A stretch of DNA of 64,000 nucleotides from Escherichia phage EPFV3-03/2025. A program made the translations under genes and the position numbers. The DNA is taken from sequence record PV435126.1. One strand, 5' to 3'. Below, in pieces: positions 801-61,389 of this stretch. The stretch's first letter is position 1. Each line of letters starts with the position of its first letter. A model generated the notes under the pieces. The model was not told the DNA's origin. It searched no databases and saw only the letters and a program-made list of their open reading frames with translations.

Positions 801-2282
801 TTATTTGGCGTACTCGATTAATTCTACAGTTTTCCCAAAGCTTGGGATATAATTTTTATTATACCCTTCGGTGAGAACCCATAAAGTATCGTACTTTTTC
901 CACTTGTTGTCAACAGCCTTTTGTTCAAAGTTATGCTCAAAGTATAGGTCGGTCAGGACGATGACATCTTTTGCATTTGGTATGTTAGCGTCCAGATACT
1001 CGAACACGCAAGCGGCTGTTGTTCCCCATGTTGAGTGGACCTCATAGTTGATCATCTCGTCGATGTTCCCCCGAGTGTATACTTTAACCTCTCCAACCTC
1101 GGTTGACCAGCAGAACATCGTAACCTTGAACTCTTTATACAGATTGCACAACCCAGTGATCTCATTGAACATTTTCTTTAAAGTTCTTTGAGAGATCGAT
1201 CCAGAAACGTCTAGAGCCACCACAATATCTATAGTGTTTTCCGGATTACGGCCCGGAACAACAACGTGCTGATTCTTGTTTATAGCCCCAACTTTTCGCA
1301 TTGTGCTGGTCAAAGACCCAGATCGGCGACCGGGTTTTCTGTAGGTTAGTTCAGCCTTTCGTTTAGACAGCATACGTTGCTTAATGATGTCTATATAATT
1401 GATTACAGGCTTACCTCTGTTCTTGACAAACTCACGCACAGCCTCAGGGCAACGACCTCCGGAAGCCTGCATTGCTGCTTCCAACATGTCACCAGAGTCC
1501 TGCATGGCTTGATCTTTATCAGATTGGCTGATCACTGGTTGTGGCTGATCATACCCCATCGCCTTTCCAAGATCATCACTAGTGCCACCGTTACCACTCA
1601 TGTGATCATCGGTTTGTCGTTTATCTCCTTGAGAGTTCTCGCCTTTACCGTTCTTACTTTTACCACTATTCTGATCTCTTTGCTTATCAAGAACCGCATA
1701 GACGTTCTCAGCAATCCATCCATGGAACCTCATGTCACAGTAGCAACTAGCTAAGAAGCCAAAAGGCTTACCTTTTACGAACTCAGTGCTTTTCCCCTTC
1801 GGGAAGAAAACACAAGGAGGCTTGCTAAAGTCAACCACAAGACCTGTGTTGATAACGTGATCACAAGCAATATTGAACAGTTCCGGCTCAAAGCTTTTAC
1901 CACGGACCAAATGATCACAGATAATATGCCCCACCTCATGTGACAGAAGAAAGGCCACCTCTTTCACAGATTTTGGGGAATAGAAAACCTCAGCCATCTC
2001 AAACTGCTTGTCAGTCAGAGATGCTTTAAGAATGGTTTTACGCTCATCTGCCAGCCCCATAATGAACTCAGGGCTGTAGTAGATGCGTTTATGGTCTGTT
2101 GCCATAGTGGAGCACCATGTGTGGTTTTCTACGAACTGCAACCCTGACAACAGTGTGCCATAAAACGGCAGCTTTTCAAGAAGATACATGCGTGCTGCCT
2201 GCAGCATTCGCAAGGCGTCATCTTTTTGTGCGGCAATGATTTCTGAACTTCTGCTATCCATTAAAACTCCAGAAGGGGCCAA
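801..2282 (-). CDS. VWA-domain protein with HExxH metallopeptidase-like N-terminal region (493 aa)
   Basis: HEVGHIICDH zinc-peptidase-like motif; VVALDVSGSIS MIDAS-type von Willebrand A motif. Confidence 0.8.
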   Translation of the reverse strand: MAPSGVLMDSRSSEIIAAQKDDALRMLQAARMYLLEKLPFYGTLLSGLQFVENHTWCSTMATDHKRIYYSPEFIMGLADERKTILKASLTDKQFEMAEVFYSPKSVKEVAFLLSHEVGHIICDHLVRGKSFEPELFNIACDHVINTGLVVDFSKPPCVFFPKGKSTEFVKGKPFGFLASCYCDMRFHGWIAENVYAVLDKQRDQNSGKSKNGKGENSQGDKRQTDDHMSGNGGTSDDLGKAMGYDQPQPVISQSDKDQAMQDSGDMLEAAMQASGGRCPEAVREFVKNRGKPVINYIDIIKQRMLSKRKAELTYRKPGRRSGSLTSTMRKVGAINKNQHVVVPGRNPENTIDIVVALDVSGSISQRTLKKMFNEITGLCNLYKEFKVTMFCWSTEVGEVKVYTRGNIDEMINYEVHSTWGTTAACVFEYLDANIPNAKDVIVLTDLYFEHNFEQKAVDNKWKKYDTLWVLTEGYNKNYIPSFGKTVELIEYAK

Positions 2283-2294
2283 TGGCCCCTGTCA

Positions 2295-3350
2295 TTATTT
2301 AACGTGCTTGAAAATACCAGCCAACTCGGTCATTGTCATGCGAGTGGTCTTCATAAGGTCTGTCATAGCCTTCTCCATGATTGGAGATACTACCATAAAG
2401 TTACCCTTGGTGAAACCTTTATTCCAGTCGGTCACTAATAGTGGTTTAAGTCCGGCCCCGAGACGCTCACCAGTCAAAGCACAACATTTTCGGATGTATG
2501 TGCTCTTAAATTGACTGAATGACAGATCAACTTTCATACCTGCATCGTAGAACGTCTGGCAATAGAAAGTGTAAGCTTTGGCAATCTCAACATCGTCAGG
2601 CAGTGCAGGAACCTCTTCTGTAAGCTCTTCTTCGACCCCTTTAGGCTCTTTTTCCTCTTCGTAAGTCTGTTGCATCATCTCTTCAATCTCCTCTGCTACA
2701 GGCTCGTTTACAATGTCAGAAATGTGCTTGTTTGCTCCACGATTAGCCATGAAGTTTTTAAAATCCTGCATTGGTGACATATCTTCCTCCCATTCTTCGT
2801 CAAAGAGTGCTAGTTTATCCTCTTCCGTTCCATATTGCAAGATGAAATCTTCAAAAGTGTAATCACCTTTCAATTTCTCCATACGCTCTTCGCTCAGGTG
2901 GAGCATCATCTGCTGGACAATTTTTCGATCAGTTTTGTCTTTAATCAAGACTGCGGTCTTTTTATCTACCAGGCAGTCCTTTAGAGAGTTGCATCTCAAT
3001 CCCACCACACAACAATTATCAACAGCATAAGGACCTTCATCATCTATCCGCTCTAGGGAGGGGTAGAAAGGATTTCCCAGTCCGTTTTCATCTGTGTGCA
3101 TGTCGAAAGGTATAAGGGTATAGTCGCACACCCCCTCTCCTAAAAGTTTTTTACCAAATAGGAGGTATTCTTCCCATGACAGGTTGAACTCTATATCTCG
3201 TTTCCGTGCATTATTTTGTTTGCGTCTGTATTTTTTGAGCAGGCGCTCTAACTCTTCTGGTGTATAATATTTTTCAAGATTCATGAGTTGTCTCTTGTGC
3301 TCTGTAGGTGAAGAAATCTTATCAAGTGCCTCAACAGATGTCAACCTCAA
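2295..3350 (-). CDS. hypothetical protein (351 aa), possible degenerate HNH-like motif
   Basis: ERIDDEGPYAVDN...LRCNSLK resembles an HNH core with His replaced; acidic C-terminal half; function uncertain. Confidence 0.45.
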   Translation of the reverse strand: MRLTSVEALDKISSPTEHKRQLMNLEKYYTPEELERLLKKYRRKQNNARKRDIEFNLSWEEYLLFGKKLLGEGVCDYTLIPFDMHTDENGLGNPFYPSLERIDDEGPYAVDNCCVVGLRCNSLKDCLVDKKTAVLIKDKTDRKIVQQMMLHLSEERMEKLKGDYTFEDFILQYGTEEDKLALFDEEWEEDMSPMQDFKNFMANRGANKHISDIVNEPVAEEIEEMMQQTYEEEKEPKGVEEELTEEVPALPDDVEIAKAYTFYCQTFYDAGMKVDLSFSQFKSTYIRKCCALTGERLGAGLKPLLVTDWNKGFTKGNFMVVSPIMEKAMTDLMKTTRMTMTELAGIFKHVK

Positions 3351-3357
3351 AAACGTG

Positions 3358-3386
3358 TTGACTTTACCCTAAATCCACGATATAGT
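3358..3386 (+). promoter_or_regulatory. sigma70-type promoter
   Basis: -35 TTGACT 3358-3363, 17-bp spacer, -10 TATAGT 3381-3386; upstream of ORF 3427 at the divergence point. Confidence 0.5.
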
Positions 3387-3426
3387 TCACCCATTCGAAA
3401 GAAAACGAACACAGGAGTACTTAATC

Positions 3427-4326
3427 ATGGCAAATCTTAACAGCTTTAGCACTCGATGGAAACAAGATATCACAACCAATCTCTCTGCAGGCGATATCCT
3501 TTCTGCAATTTACGAGGCTTTGGATGATAAAGCTACTTCAAAATCGGTTTGTACCAACCCGTTAATTCCTATGGTAATGAAGGTGATTGAGCGTAGGTTG
3601 GTATCCGGATCTGATAAGTGGACATATCTGGATAATGGAGGCCACACTTACTCCAACGGCTATGTCGATATAAAAGTAGAATATGCGGTATCATATCGCC
3701 GGAGCGGCTCTGTAACTTTCAACTTCTCTGGTGGTTTCCGATCTCTGGCAACTTCACCTTTTGTTTCCTCAGAGGAGAAGTTTGAACTTCCGTTCCTTTG
3801 GATGATGGCTAACGCGACAGGCAAAACCCCTGTAAGCATTCGCGTAAAATACAACTACAACGGATCTAGTAAGATCTATGCTGAGAGTGTCTCAGCAAGT
3901 TTTTATTTTGTGATGGGGGATGGAATCCTCAAACATATAAAGATGTGCGATATGCATGATGTTATAAATGAAGTGACTGATAAGAATGTTCTGGTGAAGG
4001 ATCTCAACAATTTTTATACACCAGGGGACTATTACGTCAACCGTCCACTGTGCATCTTTAATGCTGCACACCCTTTAGGTGAGTATTTGATTGCCAATAG
4101 TGATATTGCCAATAACCGCTTCGAGGTAGCAAGAGTACAGAATGAGGTGTTGACATCTTGCAAGAGCGGTGATAAGTTTACCGAAGAAGAGATGGGTGTT
4201 TTAGAGATGATGGGATATAAGTGTAGCCTTTGGGTAGATGAGGTGTTTAATGACGGCATCTATGGACAGGATATTTACCCGTTAAAGAAGTATACTGATT
4301 CCAGTTTAATTTACGCGGGGATTTGA
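3427..4326 (+). CDS. hypothetical protein (299 aa)
   Basis: ORF with AGGAG 10 nt upstream of ATG; first gene of plus-strand block. Confidence 0.55.
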   Translation: MANLNSFSTRWKQDITTNLSAGDILSAIYEALDDKATSKSVCTNPLIPMVMKVIERRLVSGSDKWTYLDNGGHTYSNGYVDIKVEYAVSYRRSGSVTFNFSGGFRSLATSPFVSSEEKFELPFLWMMANATGKTPVSIRVKYNYNGSSKIYAESVSASFYFVMGDGILKHIKMCDMHDVINEVTDKNVLVKDLNNFYTPGDYYVNRPLCIFNAAHPLGEYLIANSDIANNRFEVARVQNEVLTSCKSGDKFTEEEMGVLEMMGYKCSLWVDEVFNDGIYGQDIYPLKKYTDSSLIYAGI

Positions 4327-4601
4327 CTATGATGAAGGCATGTGGTAGTGTATACTATGTGGGTGAAAATGTTCAGGCAGACAGTGTGTGGAAATCCATT
4401 AAGTCCACCACCGATGATGCCTTCTTGAGCGGGTTATGTTTCCCCAATCCCGGAGACATTCTCCCTTACCCTGGGGATTTTGTTGTCAACAAGACGGACG
4501 GTTATACCGTGTGCCTGATGGTAGAAAAAATCTTTTTAGACACTAGACACAATCACCGTCTTGTGTTAAAATTTCAAGAATGTAAAATGACAGTTGCCTA
4601 A
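4323..4601 (+). CDS. hypothetical protein (92 aa)
   Basis: ORF overlapping upstream stop by 4 nt; no motif recognised. Confidence 0.4.
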   Translation: MTMMKACGSVYYVGENVQADSVWKSIKSTTDDAFLSGLCFPNPGDILPYPGDFVVNKTDGYTVCLMVEKIFLDTRHNHRLVLKFQECKMTVA

Positions 4602-4613
4602 GGAGGCCTACCA

Positions 4614-4970
4614 ATGTCTAAAGTTACTTATCGTGCAGCTATTTACTGCAATGAGCAACCAATCAATAATGATGGTCACTGCTTTTTTAAAGAAAATCAG
4701 TTGGGCTGTATTGCCCTCCTTGATGAAGGGGAAGGTTATATGATTGCATTGACAGGGTTTGAGCCTGAAGCCTTGGAAGCCAATCTGGACTACCTGGTAG
4801 AGAAGGGTGCTGCAGACCTGGTTGCCAATGGCCTCTCCATAAGCCTTGAAGAAGTGGAGCGCTTCATGGGCAATTACCGTGTAGTGCGTGAGTTTACTAT
4901 CGAGGTGGAAACTCCGGAGTGGGGTAGCACTGAAACTAATGCTGAAGAAAAAGAAGAGGGGGTAGAATAA
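4614..4970 (+). CDS. hypothetical acidic protein (118 aa)
   Basis: ORF preceded by AAGGAGG; acidic C-terminus. Confidence 0.5.
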   Translation: MSKVTYRAAIYCNEQPINNDGHCFFKENQLGCIALLDEGEGYMIALTGFEPEALEANLDYLVEKGAADLVANGLSISLEEVERFMGNYRVVREFTIEVETPEWGSTETNAEEKEEGVE

Positions 4971-5227
4971 TGAAAGTGCAGATCTTGACTAATGCCGAGA
5001 AGATGTTTATCGAAGATACGCCTTTTGAAACTGGTGAGCTACAGTTTGTATATTTTGTTGACTTAGATAAGGTTTTTCCTGCGCTGAATCTGGGTTTGGA
5101 GAAAGTACCTTATAAAACTCTATGCCAGGTTGTCCGTGCCTTAGCCGCAGATGGGGAGTTCCACACCCTTGAAGATATCCAGACCTATGGGTATCTTGAA
5201 CTGCAACGAGAAGAAGAGGTAGACTGA
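4970..5227 (+). CDS. hypothetical protein (85 aa)
   Basis: ORF with ATGA start/stop overlap with upstream gene. Confidence 0.45.
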   Translation: MKVQILTNAEKMFIEDTPFETGELQFVYFVDLDKVFPALNLGLEKVPYKTLCQVVRALAADGEFHTLEDIQTYGYLELQREEEVD

Positions 5228-5229
5228 TA

Positions 5230-5610
5230 ATGGCCCAGTGGAAGACAACAGTTGACCTTCATGATCAGTGGTTAGGACGCATAACTGAAGACGGGAAACT
5301 GGTAGAGTGGGACAACAAGCATGTTAGCGAGTTGGCAAGTATTGTGGCTGGCAAGTTACGCTCCAAGTTCCCTGAACAACTGGATCCTGATAGTTCAAAG
5401 TTCGATCCTGAGTTGGAGGATGTTGTATACTACTTCGACACCGTGGATGACTACGATGCGTGGTTTGCAGCACTGGAGTTATACCCACAAGGATCCGCTA
5501 TGCGCCGGATGGAAGAAGATTACCCTCCGTGTGAGCAATTCAATAGTGCAATGACTTGCCTTTATGATTGGGCAGATAAGAACCTTGTCTGGATTCGGAC
5601 TGCATTTTAG
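5230..5610 (+). CDS. hypothetical protein (126 aa)
   Basis: ORF in operon-like array; no motif recognised. Confidence 0.5.
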   Translation: MAQWKTTVDLHDQWLGRITEDGKLVEWDNKHVSELASIVAGKLRSKFPEQLDPDSSKFDPELEDVVYYFDTVDDYDAWFAALELYPQGSAMRRMEEDYPPCEQFNSAMTCLYDWADKNLVWIRTAF

Positions 5611-5654
5611 TGGGTAGGGATGGCGGCAAGGATGCTGCTTAAGGAGCAGTAGAG

Positions 5655-5924
5655 ATGTTATACCAGCAGTACGAACTTCGTGCAGAAAAAGAATTAAATT
5701 TTGACAAAGATATTCACAGATATTATTATGGGAAAGTTAGAGGGCAAGCAAGAAAGTGTACTCCAACACTCTTTCATGCCAGCAGACGACTAGCTCCAGA
5801 AGAGGCAACAGCAGAAAGGGTTGCATATGGCTGGAGAGTTGCGTATGATATTGACAGATCCGATGTGATGTCTGTTTTGGAAAACTTTGAAAACACTTAC
5901 ACACAAGTAGAGGACTTTTACTAA
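5655..5924 (+). CDS. hypothetical protein (89 aa)
   Basis: ORF in operon-like array; stop overlaps next start. Confidence 0.45.
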   Translation: MLYQQYELRAEKELNFDKDIHRYYYGKVRGQARKCTPTLFHASRRLAPEEATAERVAYGWRVAYDIDRSDVMSVLENFENTYTQVEDFY

Positions 5925-7108
5925 TGTCAAGAAACGTATTCGAAAGTGGTCAAATCACTGTCCGCGAGTTGCCAGCTATTATTCAATTTGCCCAGCGTCA
6001 TAACCGATCTGTCCTGATTTTAGGACCGATGGGTGTGGGGAAGAGCCAGGTGATGAAGCAGATTGCTGATAATATGTTCGGTGAGCGAGATGACAACCTG
6101 GTTGACGTGCGGCTGTCAGATAAAGATCCTGCTGACTTGTCTGGACTGCCTATCCCTGTAGAGGCAGATGGAACTACACGCACAGTGTTTGCAATTCCAG
6201 AATTTTGGCCTGCAGACTCGGACTGGAGCGGAATTATCTTTCTGGATGAGCTTACTCATGCAGATAACTACCTGCAGAAGGTTGCAATGCAAATTATGCT
6301 CGACCACAAGTGCGGCACCTATGCATTTCCTAAGGGCTCTGTTTTTGTAGCTGCAGGTAACCGTGCTACAGATGGTGCTGTTCTTTCAGCGCTCGAAGCT
6401 CCTCTGGCTAACCGCTTTATCATTGTAGAAGTTACAAGCAATGCAGAGGTATTTATTGAGGACTACGCCTTCCTTAATGGTGTGCATTCCTCTGTAATTG
6501 GATATCTGAAAAGAGTTCCATCAGCTATCGATAATTATGAGGCTATGGCTGAGATTAATTGTCCATCTTTTGCCACACCGCGATCTTGGGTTGCTGCATC
6601 TGACATCCTGCACGATTTTGACAGCGGCATTATTTCTGACGCTATGGCTCGTGTTCTTCTGCAAGGTGCTATTGGTCACACTGCAGCGGTAGAAATCTGG
6701 ACCTACCACACCAAGAAACGAAACTTGCCAGAAATCGGTCGGATTATGGCAGGGGGTTGCAAAGAATATGTAGGTCCTAAGCAGCCAGATATCTTGTGGA
6801 TTCTTGGGTCTGAAGGCTGTATTGCTATTCGGAATATGATGGAAAATGCAAGTGTCTCAGATGAAGATCTTGTTAGCTGCGTGGCAAACTTCCTTGATTT
6901 CCTTTGGGAAAATTTCAAGGATGAGAACCGAGACTTTGTATTCTCAGTCTTTATGGCGATGATGAAACCCAACGCCCTAGGAAATGCCTTACTTATTGGT
7001 AAAGGTCGGGACAAGATCGTTGCTCAGCTGATCAAAGCATACCCGAACCTGATGAAGATTGTAAAAGAGTTTGGTGAAGAGTTTAGCGCCATTTTAGCTA
7101 AAGCTTGA
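5924..7108 (+). CDS. MoxR-like AAA+ ATPase (394 aa)
   Basis: Walker A GPMGVGKSQ, Walker B IIFLDELTHA, MoxR-like spacing and length. Confidence 0.85.
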   Translation: MSRNVFESGQITVRELPAIIQFAQRHNRSVLILGPMGVGKSQVMKQIADNMFGERDDNLVDVRLSDKDPADLSGLPIPVEADGTTRTVFAIPEFWPADSDWSGIIFLDELTHADNYLQKVAMQIMLDHKCGTYAFPKGSVFVAAGNRATDGAVLSALEAPLANRFIIVEVTSNAEVFIEDYAFLNGVHSSVIGYLKRVPSAIDNYEAMAEINCPSFATPRSWVAASDILHDFDSGIISDAMARVLLQGAIGHTAAVEIWTYHTKKRNLPEIGRIMAGGCKEYVGPKQPDILWILGSEGCIAIRNMMENASVSDEDLVSCVANFLDFLWENFKDENRDFVFSVFMAMMKPNALGNALLIGKGRDKIVAQLIKAYPNLMKIVKEFGEEFSAILAKA

Positions 7109-7511: not shown

Positions 7512-7538
7512 CCCCGCTTCGGCGGGGATTTTCTATTT
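7512..7538 (+). terminator. rho-independent terminator
   Basis: GC stem CCCCGC/GCGGGG with UUCG-type tetraloop, then ATTTTCTATTT. Confidence 0.7.
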
Positions 7539-17143: not shown

Positions 17144-20100
17144 ATGAGCATGTGGTCGTTCGATTTTGAGGCCTCTGGCTTGCTGGAAGACCCAGATCTT
17201 TATTATCACTGCGGTTTGTTTAAAGAGCTGAATAAGAACCGTTTTATGCTGTTCCTCCCCCTAAATGACCGCACACACTACTCTGAAGAGGATGTGGAGA
17301 AAGCTAAGAACTTCATTCTGGCAAAAAAGACCCTTTATACAGATTTTGAGGCTCGCATAGCAGATTTTTCAGAGTTGGAAGGCTGGCTTACAGGTAATTC
17401 AGATTGGTCACCTACGGCTTTGAACTGTCATAACTGCTACAGCTACGACTTTATGCTGATGGAAAGATTATCCGGTATTCATTTTGATATGTTCCGTGAT
17501 CCTAAATGCATGGGAACTATCAACGACCACCAGGTTAATCTGTTTGATACGTTAGCGATGAGTCGAATCTTGTGGCCTGACCGCCCTTTGCCAAAAGGTT
17601 GTCCGGACGCAGTATTCAATCCAGTTACCAAGAAAATGCAGCCTGTTGGGCCTCATGGCCTTATGGCATGGGGCTATGCCCTTGGTAACCAGAAAGTTCA
17701 AATCGATGACTGGCGTGAGCTTCCGCTGTGGAAGTATGTGGATCGTGTGTTCGAGGACGTTATCATTCAGGAGTTGCTCTGGAAGGAGTTGGTAGCTGAA
17801 TCAAAAGGTGTATTCTACGGCAAATCTGACATGCAGAACTTTATGTATGACCCTGCCAAAGAGAAGCCTAAAGGATTCAAGAAGATTACCTGGAAGAATG
17901 CATTACGCCGAGGCATGCTGCAGCATTTCCTGATGGAGCTGCAGGCTCGACAGGGTGTGTATTTCGACATAGATGGGGCTATTGCTTTACGTGACCGCTG
18001 CGATGCGTGGATGAAAGAGATCGCTGATCGTGTTGAACCACAACTTCCTTTAAAAGAGTTATCAATGTCTCAGCGGCCTAAGTTCCCTGAAAAGCCGTTT
18101 AACCAGGATGGGACAATCTCTAATAACGGTTGGAAATGGTTAAAAGACAAGCTTGGCTATCCTGTGGATATGGGTGCTTTAGAATTCAAAGCTCCGCCTA
18201 AGCGAGCCTTTACCTCCACAGGAGATGTCAGCAAAATGGGGATAAAATGGTGTGAAGAGATGGGCTGCAAAGACCCCGATAAGATGGCTGATTTCTTAAG
18301 GGGGTATATTAAAGGAACCTCTACACCGCACCCTTTACCTAAAGAACTAATGGATCAGGCAATAAGTGATCTGCAGCAGAAGCGGATGCCTGACTGCAAG
18401 ATACCTATGAAGATCAGCAACCAGGACGACATCAAGCGATACCTGATCAGTGCTGGTTGGCTCCCAACAATGTGGAGAACTAAGGATGTAACTAAAGACA
18501 GCAAGAAGAAAGCTTTACCTGATGCAGATGTTGATGCACGAGTATATGCATATATGGACGAGCTTTTGGAGTCAGAGTATTGTGACCTGATTATCAACTT
18601 CTGGAACAAAACTGATGCCAAGTTCCAGACAACCGTGCACAAGTTCCGAAGCTTCCCTAACTCAGAAAGGATTAAAAAGGAAGTGTTTGGGAAGATACGT
18701 AGAAAAGCCAGAGCGCTTATTACTTCTCCGCAACTGAAAGATACGTTTGGACACCTGTGCCCGAATCTTGAAAAATTGAACGGGGAGATGGCTAAAGATA
18801 TCGTTTTGTGGTTATCATTGCGAAACCGCAGATCGGTCCTTGATCCAATCAAGGAGGATAAGGTTGATACTGGTCTTCTTAATCATCCACGTTTGAAGAT
18901 TGACCATAAGCTTCCTGCTAAAAGTTCTGGATTAACAAACACTTCAAGACAGAAACACAGCATTTGTGCAAACATGCCTAAACCATCTCCTAAAGTGGTT
19001 ATGGGTAAAGAGATGCGTAGTCTGTGGGGTGTTCCTCCAGGATACTTTGAGATCGGTATTGACGGGTCTAACTTAGAGCAGCTTATTGGGGCTTGGGGTG
19101 CCTTTGAGTTTGACAACGGCCTGTATTATGATGTTGTAAGTAACGGCGATGCACACTGTTATTCAGGAGATACACAAATTCTCACGGAGAAAGGGTGGGT
19201 GAGGTTTGAAGATCTTGATCCGGGAACACAAGTGTTCCAGTACGATCACAACACCTCGTCGATGAACCTTGTTACTCCATTAAATTACGTTAAGCGTAGT
19301 TATTGTGGGGATATGTATCATTTCCACAACAGCAGTGTGGATTTTATGGTTACAGATCAACACAGGATGCTGACCGTGGATCACAGAAGCAATAAATTGT
19401 TTGAAGATTTGGCAAAAGACCTGAAAGCAGGTAAAGGGTCTAATTCAGGAAGAAGGTTTATCCATGCGGCAGAGTTTTATGGGAATACAACCTTATCTCC
19501 TGCCCAGGTTAATTTGCTTATTGCTATTCACGATGATGGGTACTTGCATACAAATAAGGACGGCAGCATCGTGTGCAGGATTCAGGCCGGGAAGGGCAGA
19601 AAAGTTGCAACGCTTTTAGATACTTTTTCTGCTCTAAGCCTTAGTTATGTAGAGCAGAGCGGGAAAACCACAAAAGGAGGCTTACTGGCGAGAAGGTTCC
19701 AATTCCACGTTCCGTCCTGGGTATTTGAGTTTTTGGACAGCAATAAGGATTTCACCTACAACCTGATGGACCTTGATAAAGAATCTAAAAACCTGTTTAT
19801 AGCTTCTTTATCTAACTGGGACGGGTGGGTATCTCCCGAAGGTGGAAAAGTTGCCTACTACTCTCAGGCCGAGTGCAGGAAGAAATCTGTAGAGGTTGTG
19901 TCTGCGCTGGCTACTCAGTGTGGTTTACGGAATAATACGGTGGCGATTCACAAAAAAGGTCGTTCCGTACAGCACAGAATCACGATTGGTAGCAAACAGA
20001 GAGCAGGGTTGCTGACACTATCTAAAGAGCCTGTCGGGGTGAGCGGTTCTTTGGTTTATTGCGTTACCGTCCCTTCTGGAGCAATCATTGTGAGAAGGAA

Positions 20101-20536
20101 TGGTAAAGTGGCAGTGTGCGGTAACTGTAATAACGCCAAAGCTTACTCTTCTGTAGCAGGCAAGGAGATTTCCCGTAACGATGGTAAGCCTGTCACGTAC
20201 GGTGTTATGTACGGGGCACAAAAAGATAAAGTTGCAGACATGCTGGATATCTCTCCAGAGTTGGGGCAAAGGGTAATCGATGCGCTTTGGGATGCCAACC
20301 CAGGTCTTAAGGGGCGTAAAGAGGATCTGGAGAAATTCTGGGAAGCAACAGGTAAGAAATTTATCTACTCTTTTGACGGTCATGCCATCTGGACCCGATC
20401 TAAACACTCTTTACTTAATGCATACCAACAGAATGGTGGTGCATCGTTGTGTGACTTAGTTGGGATACTCATGCACCACCAAATGGTGAAGCGTGGGTGG
20501 TACGATGAAGGTGTCCGTCGTATTATTTATTACCAT
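17144..20536 (+). CDS. family A DNA polymerase, exon 1 (contains intein)
   Basis: 3'-5' exo motif SFDFEASG; motif A-like DGSNLEQL...GDAH; T7-like motif B RNDGKPVTYGVMYGAQ after the intein; ORF lacks motif C unless spliced to exon 2. Confidence 0.9.
19157..20125 (+). mobile_element. intein (323 codons) with LAGLIDADG-like endonuclease motifs inside DNA polymerase
   Basis: Begins CYSGDTQIL (block A), TDQH (block B), LLIAIHDDGY and FIASLSNWDGW (LAGLIDADG-like), ends ...VYCVTV...RRNGKVAVCGN followed by Cys. Confidence 0.75.
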
Positions 20537-20812
20537 AAATAACATTGTGGCTTCATAGAGTAATCTATGTCGAATAACCTCTTTAACTGCGGGAAGCCTA
20601 AACCTTATGGCAAGGTAATCCGCAACGAAGCGCTCAAAAGAGCGAACGCTCAGAGGCCATTCCGAAAGGAAGTAGACCAGCAAGTGCGGTCGAAATGGGA
20701 GGATTCCTGTGGTTGCTTATCATAGGAATATGAGATGGTCCGATCCTACGTGAAAACGTATGGCTATGCACGTAATGGTGCGGGGTAGCTTAACGACCTA
20801 CCTGAACTATTG
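20537..20812 (+). mobile_element. group I intron (276 nt, no ORF) in DNA polymerase gene
   Basis: Starts after exon U (cat|), ends with G before gat; P-like aactgcgggaag 20585-20596, Q-like aatccgcaac 20617-20626, S-like gagatggtccga 20732-20743; splicing restores in-frame HDE motif C. Confidence 0.6.
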
Positions 20813-54978: not shown

Positions 54979-56028
54979 TTAAGCTTCTTCGACAATTCCT
55001 GCACCCAGGATTTTTTCATTGAGCTCTTTTGCTGTTTTAATAATATTGTCCACCAGACGCTTGCGGGTCTTATCTTTAACCTGAACTTCTTCACCTCCGT
55101 TCAGGGTGGTTTTCAATTGGGACAAAATGTCCTGAAGCTCTACCACAGAGAATCGCTGCAGATCTTCCGAGGTAATCTCACCAAGTGCAATCTTAACGGT
55201 CTCACCGCTCTCCATCTGTAGATTCAGGAACACAGTGTGAACATCACCTTTCACACCATTTGCTTTTGCAGACTCAACAGCATGAACCAGCTCGTCCAGA
55301 GATGTGCATTGGTGAATCTCTGGCAGGCCTGCTTCACCTAGCACACCTTCTTCATCACTTTTTGCCAAAAGCTTTTTCGGTTTCTGTCCATTCTGAATGC
55401 GCTGAATGTTTTCATCGTCCAGAATGATAGCACCAGTTCGAGATGCCAGCTCTTCTCCATCTAACCACACTTCGCCACCAGCTGTGATGGATGCGATTTC
55501 ATCTTCTGTTAACACCCCACCGTAGTATTTTTCAATCAGGCGTTCAAAACGTTTCTTCCAGTAGTTGATCTGGGTATTCATGTTCACACCGTTACCATAG
55601 GTGCCACCTTGATAGTAGTGGAACATAAATTCTGTGTCCGGAGCTACAGTTCGTTCTTTGCAACCCAGCCATAAGATTGTTCCTGCCGAGCAGCACATCC
55701 CTTCAGCGTGTACAACAACGCTTGCCTGAGACTCGCGGAATGCCTGCAAATACGCCATAGCAATGTGAACGCAACCACCGGGGCTGTTAATGATTACACG
55801 GATACTTTCTTCTGGCTGTGCCATACGAATTGTTTGCAAACGGGACATATGATCCTGCAAATCTTCAAGATCGTCAATATAAAGAACGTGGTCAACAACA
55901 GGTGTTGGGTAGCTGTATGTTTCCATAATACCACCCGGCATACCAAACATTTTGTTACTCATAGGTTCGAAACCGTTCTGTTTTTCTTTCATGCCGTGTA
56001 CCATGGTGCTGCGAGGTGTTAAATTCAT
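54979..56028 (-). CDS. ClpP-family serine protease with C-terminal extension (349 aa)
   Basis: IRVIINSPGG, GMCCSAGTIL (Ser nucleophile) and FMFHYYQGG (His) parallel ClpP INSPGG / GQAASMGAFLL / VMIHQPLGG. Confidence 0.75.
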   Translation of the reverse strand: MNLTPRSTMVHGMKEKQNGFEPMSNKMFGMPGGIMETYSYPTPVVDHVLYIDDLEDLQDHMSRLQTIRMAQPEESIRVIINSPGGCVHIAMAYLQAFRESQASVVVHAEGMCCSAGTILWLGCKERTVAPDTEFMFHYYQGGTYGNGVNMNTQINYWKKRFERLIEKYYGGVLTEDEIASITAGGEVWLDGEELASRTGAIILDDENIQRIQNGQKPKKLLAKSDEEGVLGEAGLPEIHQCTSLDELVHAVESAKANGVKGDVHTVFLNLQMESGETVKIALGEITSEDLQRFSVVELQDILSQLKTTLNGGEEVQVKDKTRKRLVDNIIKTAKELNEKILGAGIVEEA

Positions 56029-58503: not shown

Positions 58504-59466
58504 TCAGCAACCACAACTTCCGTAGTGCTTAACCCGTTCTATAACCTCCGCTTGCTTACCTTTATTGTAAGGACGAGAGTTTGGACTGGACAGATACCCG
58601 GATACGCGTCTGATCACACTGATCGTTCCTTCTTCATGGTTTCCACATTCTGGGCATACAAAGCCTTTAGCTGTTGCACTGAACTCACCAGAGAATCCAC
58701 ACTTAAGACATTTATCCACAGGCTGGTTAATACCAAAATACATAATGTGTTTATATCCGAAATCAACAAGAGCTTCCAAAGCATCTAAGTTGTTTTTCAG
58801 ATTTGGTGTCTCTATGTACCCAATGTTGCCACCAGAGGAGATCATAGCAAAACCTTCCTCATACTTCCACTTATCAAAAGGCGAGCTATTGATCCATACT
58901 GGCTGATGGAAACTGTTGGTGAGGTATTCATGCTCGTGCTTCAACACTTCTGGGTATTCACGATCCAGACAGGTTGCAGCTTTATAGCATAAACTCTCAG
59001 AAGGTGTGCCGTACAAGCTAAATGCTAGTCCACTTTCCTTCTTGTATCGCTCACAAGCATCTTTCATGTGCTGAAGGATTCCAAGAGCTAAAGCCTTGTC
59101 ACCCTCTCTGCCCAAAATCTGACAGGTTTCATACACACCAATATACCCAATACTGATGGAAGCGTACCCGTCATAGAAGAGTTTATCGATACTCTCTTCA
59201 GGATCCAGGCGAGCAAGAGCTCCTTCACACCACATGATAGGGTTCTGCCCTGCCTTTGTTCCTTTTAGACGGTTAACCCTTACAAGGTGAGCCTCATATG
59301 CCAAATCCAAATATTCGTCAAGAACTGCAAAGAAATCAACACCTTCCGTTTTAGCTTTTGCCGCAATCATTGGTAGGTTAAGGCTAACAACACCCAAGTT
59401 GAATCTGCCAAGGTATTTCTCCTCGCCTGTTACAGGGTCGCTATATTTCGATAAGAAACTTCTACA
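58504..59466 (-). CDS. nrdD: anaerobic ribonucleoside-triphosphate reductase NrdD, exon 2
   Basis: Begins CRSFLSKYSD...GRFNLGVVSLNLP; C-terminal glycyl-radical motif RRVSGYL and Cys cluster. Confidence 0.85.
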   Translation of the reverse strand, partial: CRSFLSKYSDPVTGEEKYLGRFNLGVVSLNLPMIAAKAKTEGVDFFAVLDEYLDLAYEAHLVRVNRLKGTKAGQNPIMWCEGALARLDPEESIDKLFYDGYASISIGYIGVYETCQILGREGDKALALGILQHMKDACERYKKESGLAFSLYGTPSESLCYKAATCLDREYPEVLKHEHEYLTNSFHQPVWINSSPFDKWKYEEGFAMISSGGNIGYIETPNLKNNLDALEALVDFGYKHIMYFGINQPVDKCLKCGFSGEFSATAKGFVCPECGNHEEGTISVIRRVSGYLSSPNSRPYNKGKQAEVIERVKHYGSCGC

Positions 59467-60228
59467 CATTATGTTCAAGGTGGTTCGCAAGGCCACCCCC
59501 GCACCTTTACGTGCTGCTGCATGTCCCCATGCAGATCAGACTATATCTTCACACTTAGTGTGTCTACCATTTCGAGTGTCATCAGCTTACACCCTACACC
59601 GCTACATTCATCACGGTTAGTCGTTAGGCATTTCGTAACAGAACTCGTAATCATAGTTATTAGGTGCACCACGTTTCAGGATAGCAGATATTCTTTTTCT
59701 ATCTATTCCTAAAACATCAGCACAACATCTCAGACTCTTAAAGTGAATAACCACACCAGTTAATTTGTGGGTGGCTTTCACCCCGTGACATCTTGTGTAA
59801 AAAGCATAACAGTTGTTGTCGTATCCTTCTTGAGTATTGTCTGGGCAAGCTCCCCACTCAAGGTTGTATACGCTGTTATCTTTCCTGTTGTCACCTTTGT
59901 GCTTAACATATGGTAAATTGTCTGGATTTGGTAAAAACGCTTCAGCAACAAGTCTGTGAACCCTTAGGCAAACAGTCTTTTTGTTCTTGCGTATCCTGAC
60001 AAGACGGTAACCTGTGTTTATCTCTTCCCACGAATGAATAATTCTTTCATTTTCGTATCGGGTGCAATAAACATTGCCCATCTCGTCAATTTCATAACCT
60101 TCAAAATCACGAATTTGTTTTCTCATTTCAGGACTCCTCTTAGTCAGGAGTTCTGTTACGTTTAGCACGGGATTGTCCGTTCTGGAGTTTCCCCGTTTAG
60201 ATAGATTTTACATGAGCAGTTATAGTTT
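59467..60228 (-). mobile_element. group I intron in nrdD carrying an HNH homing endonuclease ORF
   Basis: Exon 1 ends ...TSMG (after U), exon 2 begins CRSFL (after G); S-like element aagatatagtct (rc of 59538-59549); splice joins two halves of a full-length NrdD. Confidence 0.65.
59617..60126 (-). CDS. HNH homing endonuclease (intron-encoded, 169 aa)
   Basis: VHRLVAEAF...NP...VKHKGDNRKDNSVYNLEWG HNH motif; ATG 60126 after AAGAGGAG. Confidence 0.8.
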   Translation of the reverse strand: MRKQIRDFEGYEIDEMGNVYCTRYENERIIHSWEEINTGYRLVRIRKNKKTVCLRVHRLVAEAFLPNPDNLPYVKHKGDNRKDNSVYNLEWGACPDNTQEGYDNNCYAFYTRCHGVKATHKLTGVVIHFKSLRCCADVLGIDRKRISAILKRGAPNNYDYEFCYEMPND

Positions 60229-61389
60229 ACCCATGCTTGTTACTTTGCCGTCTGTTGAACCTGTCACTTTACGATTCAGCGGAACAGAAACAAAGTCAGG
60301 ATAAATCCGCTCTGCAGAACATTCTAGAGCCAATCGTTTCAAATCGTAGTTAGGATCCCCAGGGTTCATGTTGACACCCTCCTCTAAGAAGAACAGCACT
60401 TTAGGGAACACAGGTGTGATCCGTTCTTCACCAAGACCCATTTTGTGAACTTTCAAGTAGTTTTTGGTAATCATTCTACCAAAGACCGAGGTATCTAGCC
60501 CTAAACTTAATGTGATGAATGGAGTTTGCCCGTTGACAGAAGTTAACGTATTGATTTGGTAGAGCAAAGTTTGCATACTATCAAACACGTCTTTATCTGT
60601 CATTTGCATTGCAACAGTCTCAGCATCTGGCAACCAATGTTCCTGACAAAATTTAAGGTTCTTCTCGTAGGTTGCTTCAGCATACTGTGCCAGATAATGA
60701 TCAATATGGCTCATGGTCTGACCACCATATTGAGCACTAGCTACTGCACTAGAGATTTGGCTAAGGATTGTTGTTGCAACCCCTATTGACTTCGGCTTAC
60801 TGACATGGGCGTTGCCAATGTTGAATCCGTTTTCCAGCATATCCGGATAATTTACCAAACAACAGTTTGTTAACGGACTGATCAGGTAGTCAAGATCATG
60901 CACATGGATGAAGCCTTTGTTGTGCTCTTCGGAGACACGGTCTGGCAGGATCTGTGTTGATGCAAGATGTTTGCTAAGGATTCCTGCAAGCAGGTCACGA
61001 TGAGTGTGTACATGATTAGTAGGCTTATTTGCGTTTTCTTTTGTAAATTCATCACAAGTACGATCCAAGAAGCCGCTAATATCTGCAAGCAGTTTTCCAC
61101 CTGCCTCTCTGTTATTATCCCTTGTCTGTCTATACTGGATGTATTCTCTGGCTGCACATTTTAAACCCATATCCATAAGAGCATCTTCAACAAGGATATG
61201 GATATTTTTTACAGAGATCGTGCACTGGTCAGTTGGCAGATTGTTGGCAACAACTTCATTAACCGCACAGGCAATCCGGTAAGCTTCTTCTTCAGTATGT
61301 CCAGACTCAAGTAAGGCGGACTCTGCCGCCTTGATCACCTTAATTCCGTTATAAAACTCTTCTCTACCGTCCCGTTTTACAACTTTCAC
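60229..61389 (-). CDS. nrdD: anaerobic ribonucleoside-triphosphate reductase NrdD, exon 1
   Basis: N-terminal ATP-cone-like MKVVKRDGREEFYNGIKV; ends ...KVTSMG at the splice site. Confidence 0.85.

Follow-up and report, generated by a model that had tools for sequence, protein, structure and literature searches.

The characterised systems in which a MoxR-type AAA+ ATPase is associated with a protein carrying a von Willebrand factor A (vWA) domain are represented by CbbQO, NorQD and RavA-ViaA; together with midasin, they served as models by analogy in this work. Two genes encoding such a pair are carried by Escherichia phage EPFV3-03/2025 (sequence record PV435126.1), in a stretch of 64,000 nucleotides that was analysed as a whole and is hereafter called the window. 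One gene encodes an ATPase and the other a protein (hereafter the VWA protein) composed of a peptidase-like domain and a vWA domain with its metal ion-dependent adhesion site (MIDAS). With a probability of about 0.7, we consider that these genes encode the subunits of one module conserved in phages and bacteria, that the two proteins still act together in trans, and that the VWA gene was relocated across a divergent promoter region in a part of the Vequintavirinae. The evidence that we regard as established consists of the homology of both proteins with intact motifs, the nearly universal adjacency of the two genes elsewhere, the purifying selection and the location in an early/middle region of the genome. 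The mechanism of the MoxR-vWA systems is described in PMC7159879.

A pair composed of a MoxR ATPase and a peptidase-vWA protein was described in the group 2.2 jumbo phages by Iyer et al. (2021, Viruses 13:63; PMC7824862), who proposed a function in virion assembly with proteolytic processing, by analogy with proteins of the Acidianus two-tailed virus. The jumbo-phage pair displays the same two-protein architecture as that of the window, and the description given in that paper points to the same family. Homologues of both window proteins were detected in the jumbo phages PBECO4 and SCTP-2, with E-values obtained by hidden Markov models (HMM) of 1e-107/2e-84 and 7e-96/2e-79, respectively. The pair of PBECO4 is adjacent and co-oriented, whereas that of the window is separated by 3.6 kb on opposite strands of a non-jumbo genome. 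The example accessions of Iyer et al. (ASV44729.1 and ASV44728.2) were not matched to a record; SCTP-2 has accessions of the ASV44xxx series with other numbers. In the N4-like phages (Schitoviridae), gp24 and gp25, the latter with a vWFA domain, count among the 14 core genes and are transcribed as middle genes (PMC4193335). They represent homologous families, as judged from the coliphage Bas96, and the match in EE36phi1 is annotated "N4 gp24-like". With about 350 and 390 amino acids, the proteins of the N4-like phages are shorter than those of the window and devoid of the insertions specific to the Vequintavirinae, and their genes are adjacent, unlike those of the window.

Other described systems were compared. 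CbbQ-CbbO (Rubisco activase) and NorQ-NorD (maturation of NO reductase) are MoxR-vWA systems for which the sequence identity is only 17-19%; CbbO and NorD have no peptidase domain, unlike the VWA protein, and their clients, Rubisco and NorB, are absent from phages. The eukaryotic midasin/Rea1, which contains AAA_5 modules and its own MIDAS, is the best sequence-profile relative of the ATPase among solved structures, and its MIDAS domain figures among the structural matches of the vWA domain. It differs in being one giant polypeptide of six fused AAA modules, involved in ribosome biogenesis and devoid of peptidase. The pair p618 (MoxR) and p892 (vWA) of the Acidianus two-tailed virus is the viral precedent cited for a chaperone role in the development of the virion tail (PMC7824862, PMC7159879). 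That virus infects archaea, its vWA protein has no peptidase domain, and the likeness to the window considered here is that of the type of pair. Finally, the minimal zincins and M48 peptidases (MJ1213, BepA, HtpX) differ from the N-terminal domain of the VWA protein by the spacing of the third ligand (HExxHxxxxH in the latter), and the VWA protein is soluble and fused to a vWA domain.

The window belongs to a Vequintavirus, an rV5-like myovirus with a non-jumbo genome of 137 kb. Its first 9 kb are 97.7% identical to Escherichia phage YP-6 and 93-97% identical to more than 100 rV5/FV3-like Vequintavirus phages; this 9-kb region, which contains both genes, is covered to at least 80% in 113 of the 124 matching records. 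The two open reading frames (ORFs) were found where the sequence-only reading had placed them, at 801-2282 on the minus strand (493 amino acids) and at 5924-7108 on the plus strand (394 amino acids). They are separated by a gap of 3.64 kb occupied by one leftward and six rightward genes. The HMMs built for the two families score 5e-160 and 1e-181 on the window and recognise a single ORF each in the 64 kb, so that the ORF pair is not due to chance. No second copy of either family and no alternative vWA or MoxR gene was detected in the 64-kb window by the HMM scan.

The assignment of the ATPase to the MoxR type, made on the letters alone, is upheld by indirect evidence, although no gathering threshold of Pfam was reached: AAA_5 scored 17.0 (threshold 22), bpMoxR scored 15.8 (threshold 27) and AAA_3 gave no match. 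Single-sequence searches of the PDB retrieved only Clp/Hsp100 proteins at the level of the P-loop for the ATPase and no match for the VWA protein, and they were replaced by profile and fold searches. About 5,700 relatives of the ATPase were recovered; outside its own clade, they display 33-36% identity over about 85% of the length (E-value of about 1e-43), and relatives at about 35% identity have weak precomputed matches to AAA_3 (MoxR proper) and AAA_5. In addition to the Walker motifs, the protein contains sensor-1 N146, the residues R147, R164 and P219-R220, and a helical C-terminal extension. In an alignment of 24 sequences, the Walker A motif G34-S41 (including G37, G39, K40 and S41), D108, E109, N146, R147, R164 and P219-R220 are invariant. 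The profile of this alignment recovered midasin as best match in the PDB (E-values of 6e-11 to 4e-10), the next family being p97 (about 3e-5), and the nearest solved folds are CbbQ and NorQ. The secondary structure assigned by DSSP on the AlphaFold2 model (mean confidence, pLDDT, of 81.5) reveals strands 76-81 and 84-89 between beta2 and beta3 and a short hairpin 129-134 before beta4, which may correspond to the helix-2 insert and to the pre-sensor-1 hairpin of the helix-2-insert clade. The nearest solved relatives are MoxR/midasin/dynein-type modules, and on its relatives, its invariant residues and its profile and fold similarity the protein is accepted here as a divergent MoxR-clade AAA+ ATPase, despite its scores below the Pfam thresholds. 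An insertion of about 25 residues in the C-terminal helical domain (alignment columns ~360-385) is present in the ATPases of the Vequintavirinae, including the unsplit Certrevirus-like ones, and absent from all other homologues. The ATPase was also compared with the vWA-MoxR ternary conflict systems (VMAP/bpMoxR; Kaur et al. 2020), in which a bpMoxR-type ATPase is combined with effector domains and a third component (VMAP, beta-propeller or FtsH), and this assignment was rejected: bpMoxR remains below threshold and no third gene is conserved across lineages. PADLOC gave no match for the VWA protein and matches only at the P-loop level for the ATPase, and NCBIfam provided nothing useful for either protein.

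The VWA protein had been described as a vWA-domain protein with an N-terminal HExxH region, and both elements were recovered. The models PF13203 (DUF2201_N; E-value 4.4e-28, 99.1 bits for a cutoff of 23.2) and PF09967 (DUF2201, VWA-like; E-value 3.6e-11, 43.7 bits for a cutoff of 26.4) match in this order, the peptidase-like domain being N-terminal and the vWA-like domain C-terminal, and the HExxH motif is HEVGH (H115-E116-x-x-H119). The choice between a CobT-like and a DUF2201-type protein, which the sequence-only reading had left to a profile search, falls on the DUF2201 type; a CobS/CobT cobaltochelatase-type pair was rejected, since no CobT or CobS model of Pfam or NCBIfam matched at E <= 0.1. 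Among the 66 VWA homologues listed, PF13203 is present in all and PF09967 in all but one. Residues are numbered here on the maximal ORF starting at TTG 2282 (493 amino acids). The true start is probably ATG 2261, a small correction to the earlier coordinates, because a GGAG motif lies 5 nucleotides upstream, the product of 486 amino acids is the one found in GenBank and in P0121, and TTG 2282 lies within a GC-rich hairpin.

From the alignment of 27 diverse homologues, window protein included, we observe that H115, E116, H119, H124 and D141 of the peptidase-like domain are invariant, as is the full MIDAS (D358, S360, S362, T421 and D445). In the AlphaFold2 model (pLDDT 81.3), a disordered linker of about residues 209-235 joins the helical N-domain to an alpha/beta domain at the C-terminus, the fold of which matches integrin I-domains, BatB, BchD, the MIDAS domain of midasin and NorD of the NorQD complex. 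A profile restricted to the N-domain recovered the minimal zincin MJ1213 (E-value 1.2e-3) and the M48 peptidases BepA/HtpX (E-values 0.03-0.3), and the alignment to zincins spans the edge strand and the HExxH helix. These data are consistent with a catalytically competent zincin. Membership in peptidase family M48 itself was rejected (PF01435, 14.9 bits for a cutoff of 20.3, only the HExxH helix being covered). The VWA proteins of the Vequintavirinae, including the unsplit Certrevirus-like ones, contain an insertion of about 37-50 residues just before the HExxH helix (columns ~100-150) that is absent from all other homologues.

The VWA protein matches phrog_1314 (3e-122), and it is under the name "HNH endonuclease" that it appears in PHROG 1314 and in many RefSeq/GenBank records (PVP-SE1 gp216, PBECO4, APECc02, DSS3phi2 and others); the names "DNA repair ATPase" and "anti-sigma factor" are found in other records. 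These three labels were rejected, the protein having no detectable domain of a nuclease or an ATPase. The misannotation of a vWA-peptidase as "HNH endonuclease" is widely propagated and is brought to light here.

The sequence-only reading considered the two proteins as the usual halves of one system, a view that a placement in unrelated families with no known partnership would have contradicted. The opposite was seen, the genes of the relatives being found side by side with the ATPase first. With the ATPase profile, 80 viral and 80 bacterial loci were collected and scanned with the HMMs of both families; a viral locus was taken as informative when at least 1.5 kb of sequence was available downstream of the ATPase gene. 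A DUF2201 gene is located directly downstream of the ATPase, on the same strand, in 66 of the 68 informative viral loci. The other two loci, on a Vequintavirus contig and on a related contig of 147 kb, are both split. Of the 71 informative bacterial loci, mostly metagenome-assembled genomes (MAGs) of Campylobacterota, 53 have the two genes adjacent and one is arranged otherwise, while in 17 a DUF2201 gene is lacking within 10 kb.

Individual genomes displayed this order too. In large contigs of uncultivated phages, the nearest ATPase homologue outside the Vequintavirinae lies immediately 5' of a DUF2201_N+DUF2201 gene, and the gene of the DUF2201 protein of Sulfurivermis fontis lies immediately 3' of an AAA_5 ATPase gene. 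In the N4-like coliphage Bas96, the ATPase (HMM E-value 6.7e-45) is directly followed by the DUF2201 protein (1.2e-88). The ATPase also comes first in the adjacent pair of PBECO4. In the Salicola jumbo phage SCTP-2, both genes are on one strand, ATPase first, with two genes between them. By tblastn, 789 phage records contain the ATPase and 586 contain the VWA protein; each is a single copy per record, and the two are found in the same phage groups. No conserved third component was revealed by the analysis of the neighbours in the viral set and in 52 bacterial loci, where no neighbour occurs in more than 13 of the 52; the neighbour conservation within the viral set reflects relatedness, since one syntenic group of aquatic phages dominates it. 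Gene neighbourhood in the relatives is the strongest support for a partnership of the ATPase with the DUF2201 protein. The bacterial ATPase loci without a DUF2201 gene within up to 10 kb include L087, L101, L104, L105, L117, L122 and L136, which come with others from Sulfurovum/Campylobacterales MAGs.

The separated and divergent layout, which the sequence-only reading had found unusual, is confined to a part of the Vequintavirinae. It has been found in Vequintavirus, in Seunavirus (Salmonella phage PVP-SE1) and in contig L007; in the last two, as in the window, the VWA gene follows an "anti-sigma-like" gene on the leftward arm while the ATPase is on the rightward arm. The unsplit order is retained by Pectobacterium phage DU_PP_IV (Certrevirus, also of the Vequintavirinae) and by contig L008, in which VWA comes after ATPase on the same strand and the gap holds two tiny ORFs or measures 40 bp. 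As read from these gene orders, the split is a derived, lineage-specific state within the Vequintavirinae, the ancestral place of the VWA gene being directly downstream of the ATPase. The identities to Seunavirus and Certrevirus are of 49% and 35% for the ATPase and of 45% and 35% for the VWA protein, and this parallel divergence argues for a relocation within the genome and not for a replacement by a foreign copy. Even when Vequintavirus is compared with Seunavirus, little conservation is seen in the genes lying between the junction of the two arms and the ATPase, and this part is therefore a region of gene flux. Both genes are kept in the split genomes examined (the window, L001, L006, L007, L166 and L169).

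The ratio of non-synonymous to synonymous substitutions (dN/dS) was calculated with a simple Nei-Gojobori script between the window and three other Vequintaviruses (three pairs, at most 6% nucleotide divergence). It ranges from 0.011 to 0.061 for the ATPase and from 0.023 to 0.027 for the VWA gene. For the six intervening ORFs it ranges from 0 to 0.44, with most values comprised between 0.05 and 0.38 in the most divergent comparison, above those of both focal genes. These values indicate strong purifying selection on the ATPase and VWA genes after the split.

Table 1. Coordinates of the features of the locus in the window (nt, nucleotide positions; aa, amino acids).
Feature	Position	Strand	Details
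DUF2201-type (VWA) gene	801..2261	-	zincin-like N-domain and vWA/MIDAS C-domain; 486 aa from ATG 2261
C-terminal vWA domain with complete MIDAS	813..1235	-	aa ~350-490; D358-x-S360-x-S362, nt 1197-1211; T421, D445
N-terminal zincin-like peptidase domain	1668..2231	-	aa ~18-205; HExxH, nt 1926-1940; H124, nt 1911-1913; D141
GC-rich perfect palindromic hairpin	2274..2290		AGGGGCCATTGGCCCCT; separates the stop codon of the upstream gene from the start of VWA
First gene of the leftward arm	2295..3284	-	maximal ORF to 3350; probable start ATG 3284
Divergent junction with back-to-back sigma70-like matches	3316..3386		10/12 each; consensus matches only
Six small/unknown genes of the rightward arm	3427..5924	+	ORF 5230-5610 alone conserved in Seunavirus and L007
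Internal sigma70-like match	5701..5729	+	TTGACA-17-TATTAT, 11/12; 195 bp 5' of the ATPase start; consensus match only
MoxR-clade AAA+ ATPase gene	5924..7108	+	394 aa; Walker A G34-S41, nt 6023-6046; Walker B D108-E109, nt 6245-6250
Terminator-like GC hairpin with T-run	7512..7527	+	one gene downstream of the ATPase

The 3.6-kb interval that separates the two genes (Table 1), previously taken as a block of unknown genes, is not wholly so, as it contains a divergent promoter-like junction, a plausible source of transcription for both arms. The minus-strand site (3344-3316) is TTGACA-17-TAAGAT with an extended -10 TG, and the plus-strand site (3358-3386) is TTGACT-17-TATAGT. The equivalent junction of PVP-SE1 contains a leftward match of 11/12, annotated as a promoter by the authors of the record. 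In every split genome, the VWA gene comes after the gene that opens the leftward arm, which is syntenic in PVP-SE1 (gp218) and L007. GenBank names this opening gene "anti-sigma factor" or "anti-termination", and PHROG 3118 lists it as "HNH endonuclease"; the first ~100 amino acids of its product match the PHROGs of endonuclease VII, Srd anti-sigma and "decoy of sigma70", and no Pfam match was found. On the minus strand, the hairpin 2274-2290 is followed by TCTGGAGTTTTAATG, which comprises the Shine-Dalgarno motif and the start codon of VWA; this hairpin might serve for attenuation, RNA processing or stabilisation. On the rightward arm, the strong terminator-like hairpin downstream of the ATPase is the probable end of the transcription unit, and the genes that follow the ATPase encode a SleB-like hydrolase, rIIA, rIIB, a Dda-like helicase, a methyltransferase, a primase/helicase and a DNA polymerase. 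Judged by these neighbours, the pair sits in an early/middle replication region and not in a structural module.

By analogy with the characterised systems, the ATPase would form a hexameric ring that binds the vWA protein, and the MIDAS site of the latter would hold a specific client protein by one of its acidic residues. This client would be remodelled through ATP hydrolysis and the fused zincin domain would then cleave it, or the ring would control the access to the peptidase. The sigma70-like divergent promoters and the middle class of the N4 homologues suggest an action before or during replication rather than in late morphogenesis. An earlier role, such as host takeover or the maturation of a replication or nucleotide-metabolism complex, also agrees somewhat better with the place of the genes in the genome and with the time at which the N4 homologues are transcribed.

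Several explanations keep the same machine and differ by its task. That it would serve virion morphogenesis, by chaperoned assembly and proteolytic processing of structural proteins, is the published proposal for the jumbo phages, drawn by analogy with p618/p892 (PMC7824862), and in the roseophage RPP1 some virion-protein genes are close to the gp24/gp25 homologues (PMC4193335). We hold this task to be unlikely for the window pair, since it lies among rIIA/rIIB, the Dda helicase, the primase/helicase and the DNA polymerase, while a separate prohead-protease-like gene is located at 54979-56028. Moreover, RNA polymerase II, dCTP deaminase, thymidylate synthase and 5'-3' exonuclease are encoded next to the pair in N4-like phages, PBECO4 and aquatic contigs, transcription of the N4 homologues falls in the middle class (PMC4193335), and the promoter matches are of sigma70 type. 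The early/middle position and the host type of these promoter matches would suit a machine aimed at a host protein, that is a takeover or counter-defence protease acting by MIDAS capture, AAA+ unfolding or extraction, and cleavage. Such a target also agrees with the Srd/anti-sigma-like gene at the start of the leftward arm and with a module that is core in very different virulent phages and stands alone, without conserved neighbours, in bacteria. It is nevertheless doubtful, as no defence or anti-defence model of PADLOC is matched, the dN/dS values of 0.01-0.06 are unlike the fast evolution usual in counter-defence genes, and the target would need to be conserved across the host groups E. coli, Pseudomonas, Vibrio and marine roseobacters. 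In its full form, an ATP-driven, MIDAS-targeted protease used early or in the middle of the infection by virulent phages against a conserved host protein or complex, the proposal is speculative. If it were true, the widespread core module (Vequintavirinae, N4-like gp24/gp25 and jumbo phages; 586-789 records) would be a host-takeover device and not a virion-assembly chaperone, and the relocation of the vWA gene beside an anti-sigma-like early gene would reflect selection for expressing the adaptor-protease earlier or for tuning its expression separately.

NorQD, CoxDE and the chelatase BchID carry out cofactor insertion or maturation of metalloenzymes. A similar chaperone acting on a phage enzyme of replication or nucleotide metabolism would account for the genes of thymidylate synthase, dCTP deaminase and thymidylate kinase that adjoin the pair in unrelated phages, and for the nearest solved folds being CbbQ and NorQ. 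The strictly conserved HExxH site, however, is not needed for cofactor insertion, the phage neighbourhood mostly mirrors expression timing and no single neighbour family is common to the lineages, so that this task appears improbable. Last, each protein could have become independent after the split, alone or with another partner, as the opposite strands, the different transcription units and the bacterial ATPase homologues without a nearby DUF2201 gene would allow. We find this very improbable: the split genomes examined keep both genes, the 9-kb region that contains them is well covered in 113 of 124 matching records, all motifs relevant to the interaction are intact with very low dN/dS, the window contains no other vWA or MoxR gene, and each gene is single-copy per record.

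Some points weigh against two subunits still acting together in trans. The literature search gave no experimental study of the pair, nor direct evidence of interaction, ATPase or peptidase activity for any member of the family. The dN/dS values rest on a simple script and three pairs. The 17 of 71 bacterial ATPase loci without a DUF2201 gene within 10 kb imply that the ATPase can exist without this partner nearby. The promoter matches in the region number 25, against 18.1 +/- 3.5 in shuffled sequences; this excess is only of about 2 standard deviations, and co-regulation of the two arms is therefore not shown.

As to novelty, GenBank already contains the names "MoxR ATPase" and "VWA-like domain-containing protein" or "putative metallopeptidase domain". 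The observation is thus confirmed as real and correctly interpreted, for a module and an annotation that were already known; the remark that the function of such pairs in phages is poorly defined also holds, as the only published proposal comes from comparative genomics (PMC7824862). The new details are that the split is derived and common to Vequintavirus and Seunavirus but not Certrevirus, that both halves, with one divergent promoter-like junction between them, remain strongly constrained, and that, by profile similarity, N4 gp24/gp25 and the pair of the jumbo phages belong to this same family. As a genome feature this changes little, and its value is that of a pointer to the module. This module is core in N4-like phages, Vequintavirinae and several jumbo phages and is also found in Campylobacterota. 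The natural split, in a tractable E. coli phage with relatives in the BASEL collection, offers a separate knock-down of each subunit without polar effects on the other.

Several other features were noticed. The ORF 5655-5924 (plus strand, 89 amino acids) has a stop codon overlapping the ATPase start (ATGA), displays no domain match and houses the internal promoter match of Table 1. It is named "ATPase" or "MoxR ATPase" in PHROG 13164 and in some records, and it evolves faster than the other ORFs of the region (dN/dS of 0.38; 86% nucleotide identity to bov10K2). The prohead-protease-like ORF on the minus strand (349 amino acids) matches "ATP-dependent protease" and head-maturation-protease PHROGs (ClpP-like) and is included in a minus-strand block with ribonucleotide reductase (RNR) genes; it is a separate candidate for the processing of virion proteins. 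In the DNA polymerase ORF (17144-20542, plus strand, 1132 amino acids), the residues ~664-1000 match PHROGs of PhoH, thymidylate synthase and ribonucleotide reductase, which may be read as the usual signature of an intein or homing-endonuclease insertion. An NrdD-like anaerobic RNR is distributed over two minus-strand ORFs (58504-59496 and 60220-61389) that abut in the profile (4-392 and 392-714) and lie about 720 bp apart; the gap is probably an intron or a homing-endonuclease insertion. Finally, 16 MG0656xx records named "Campylobacter phage", with Campylobacter jejuni as host, are about 94% identical to the window over the whole 9 kb, and this host label is surprising for an rV5-like coliphage.

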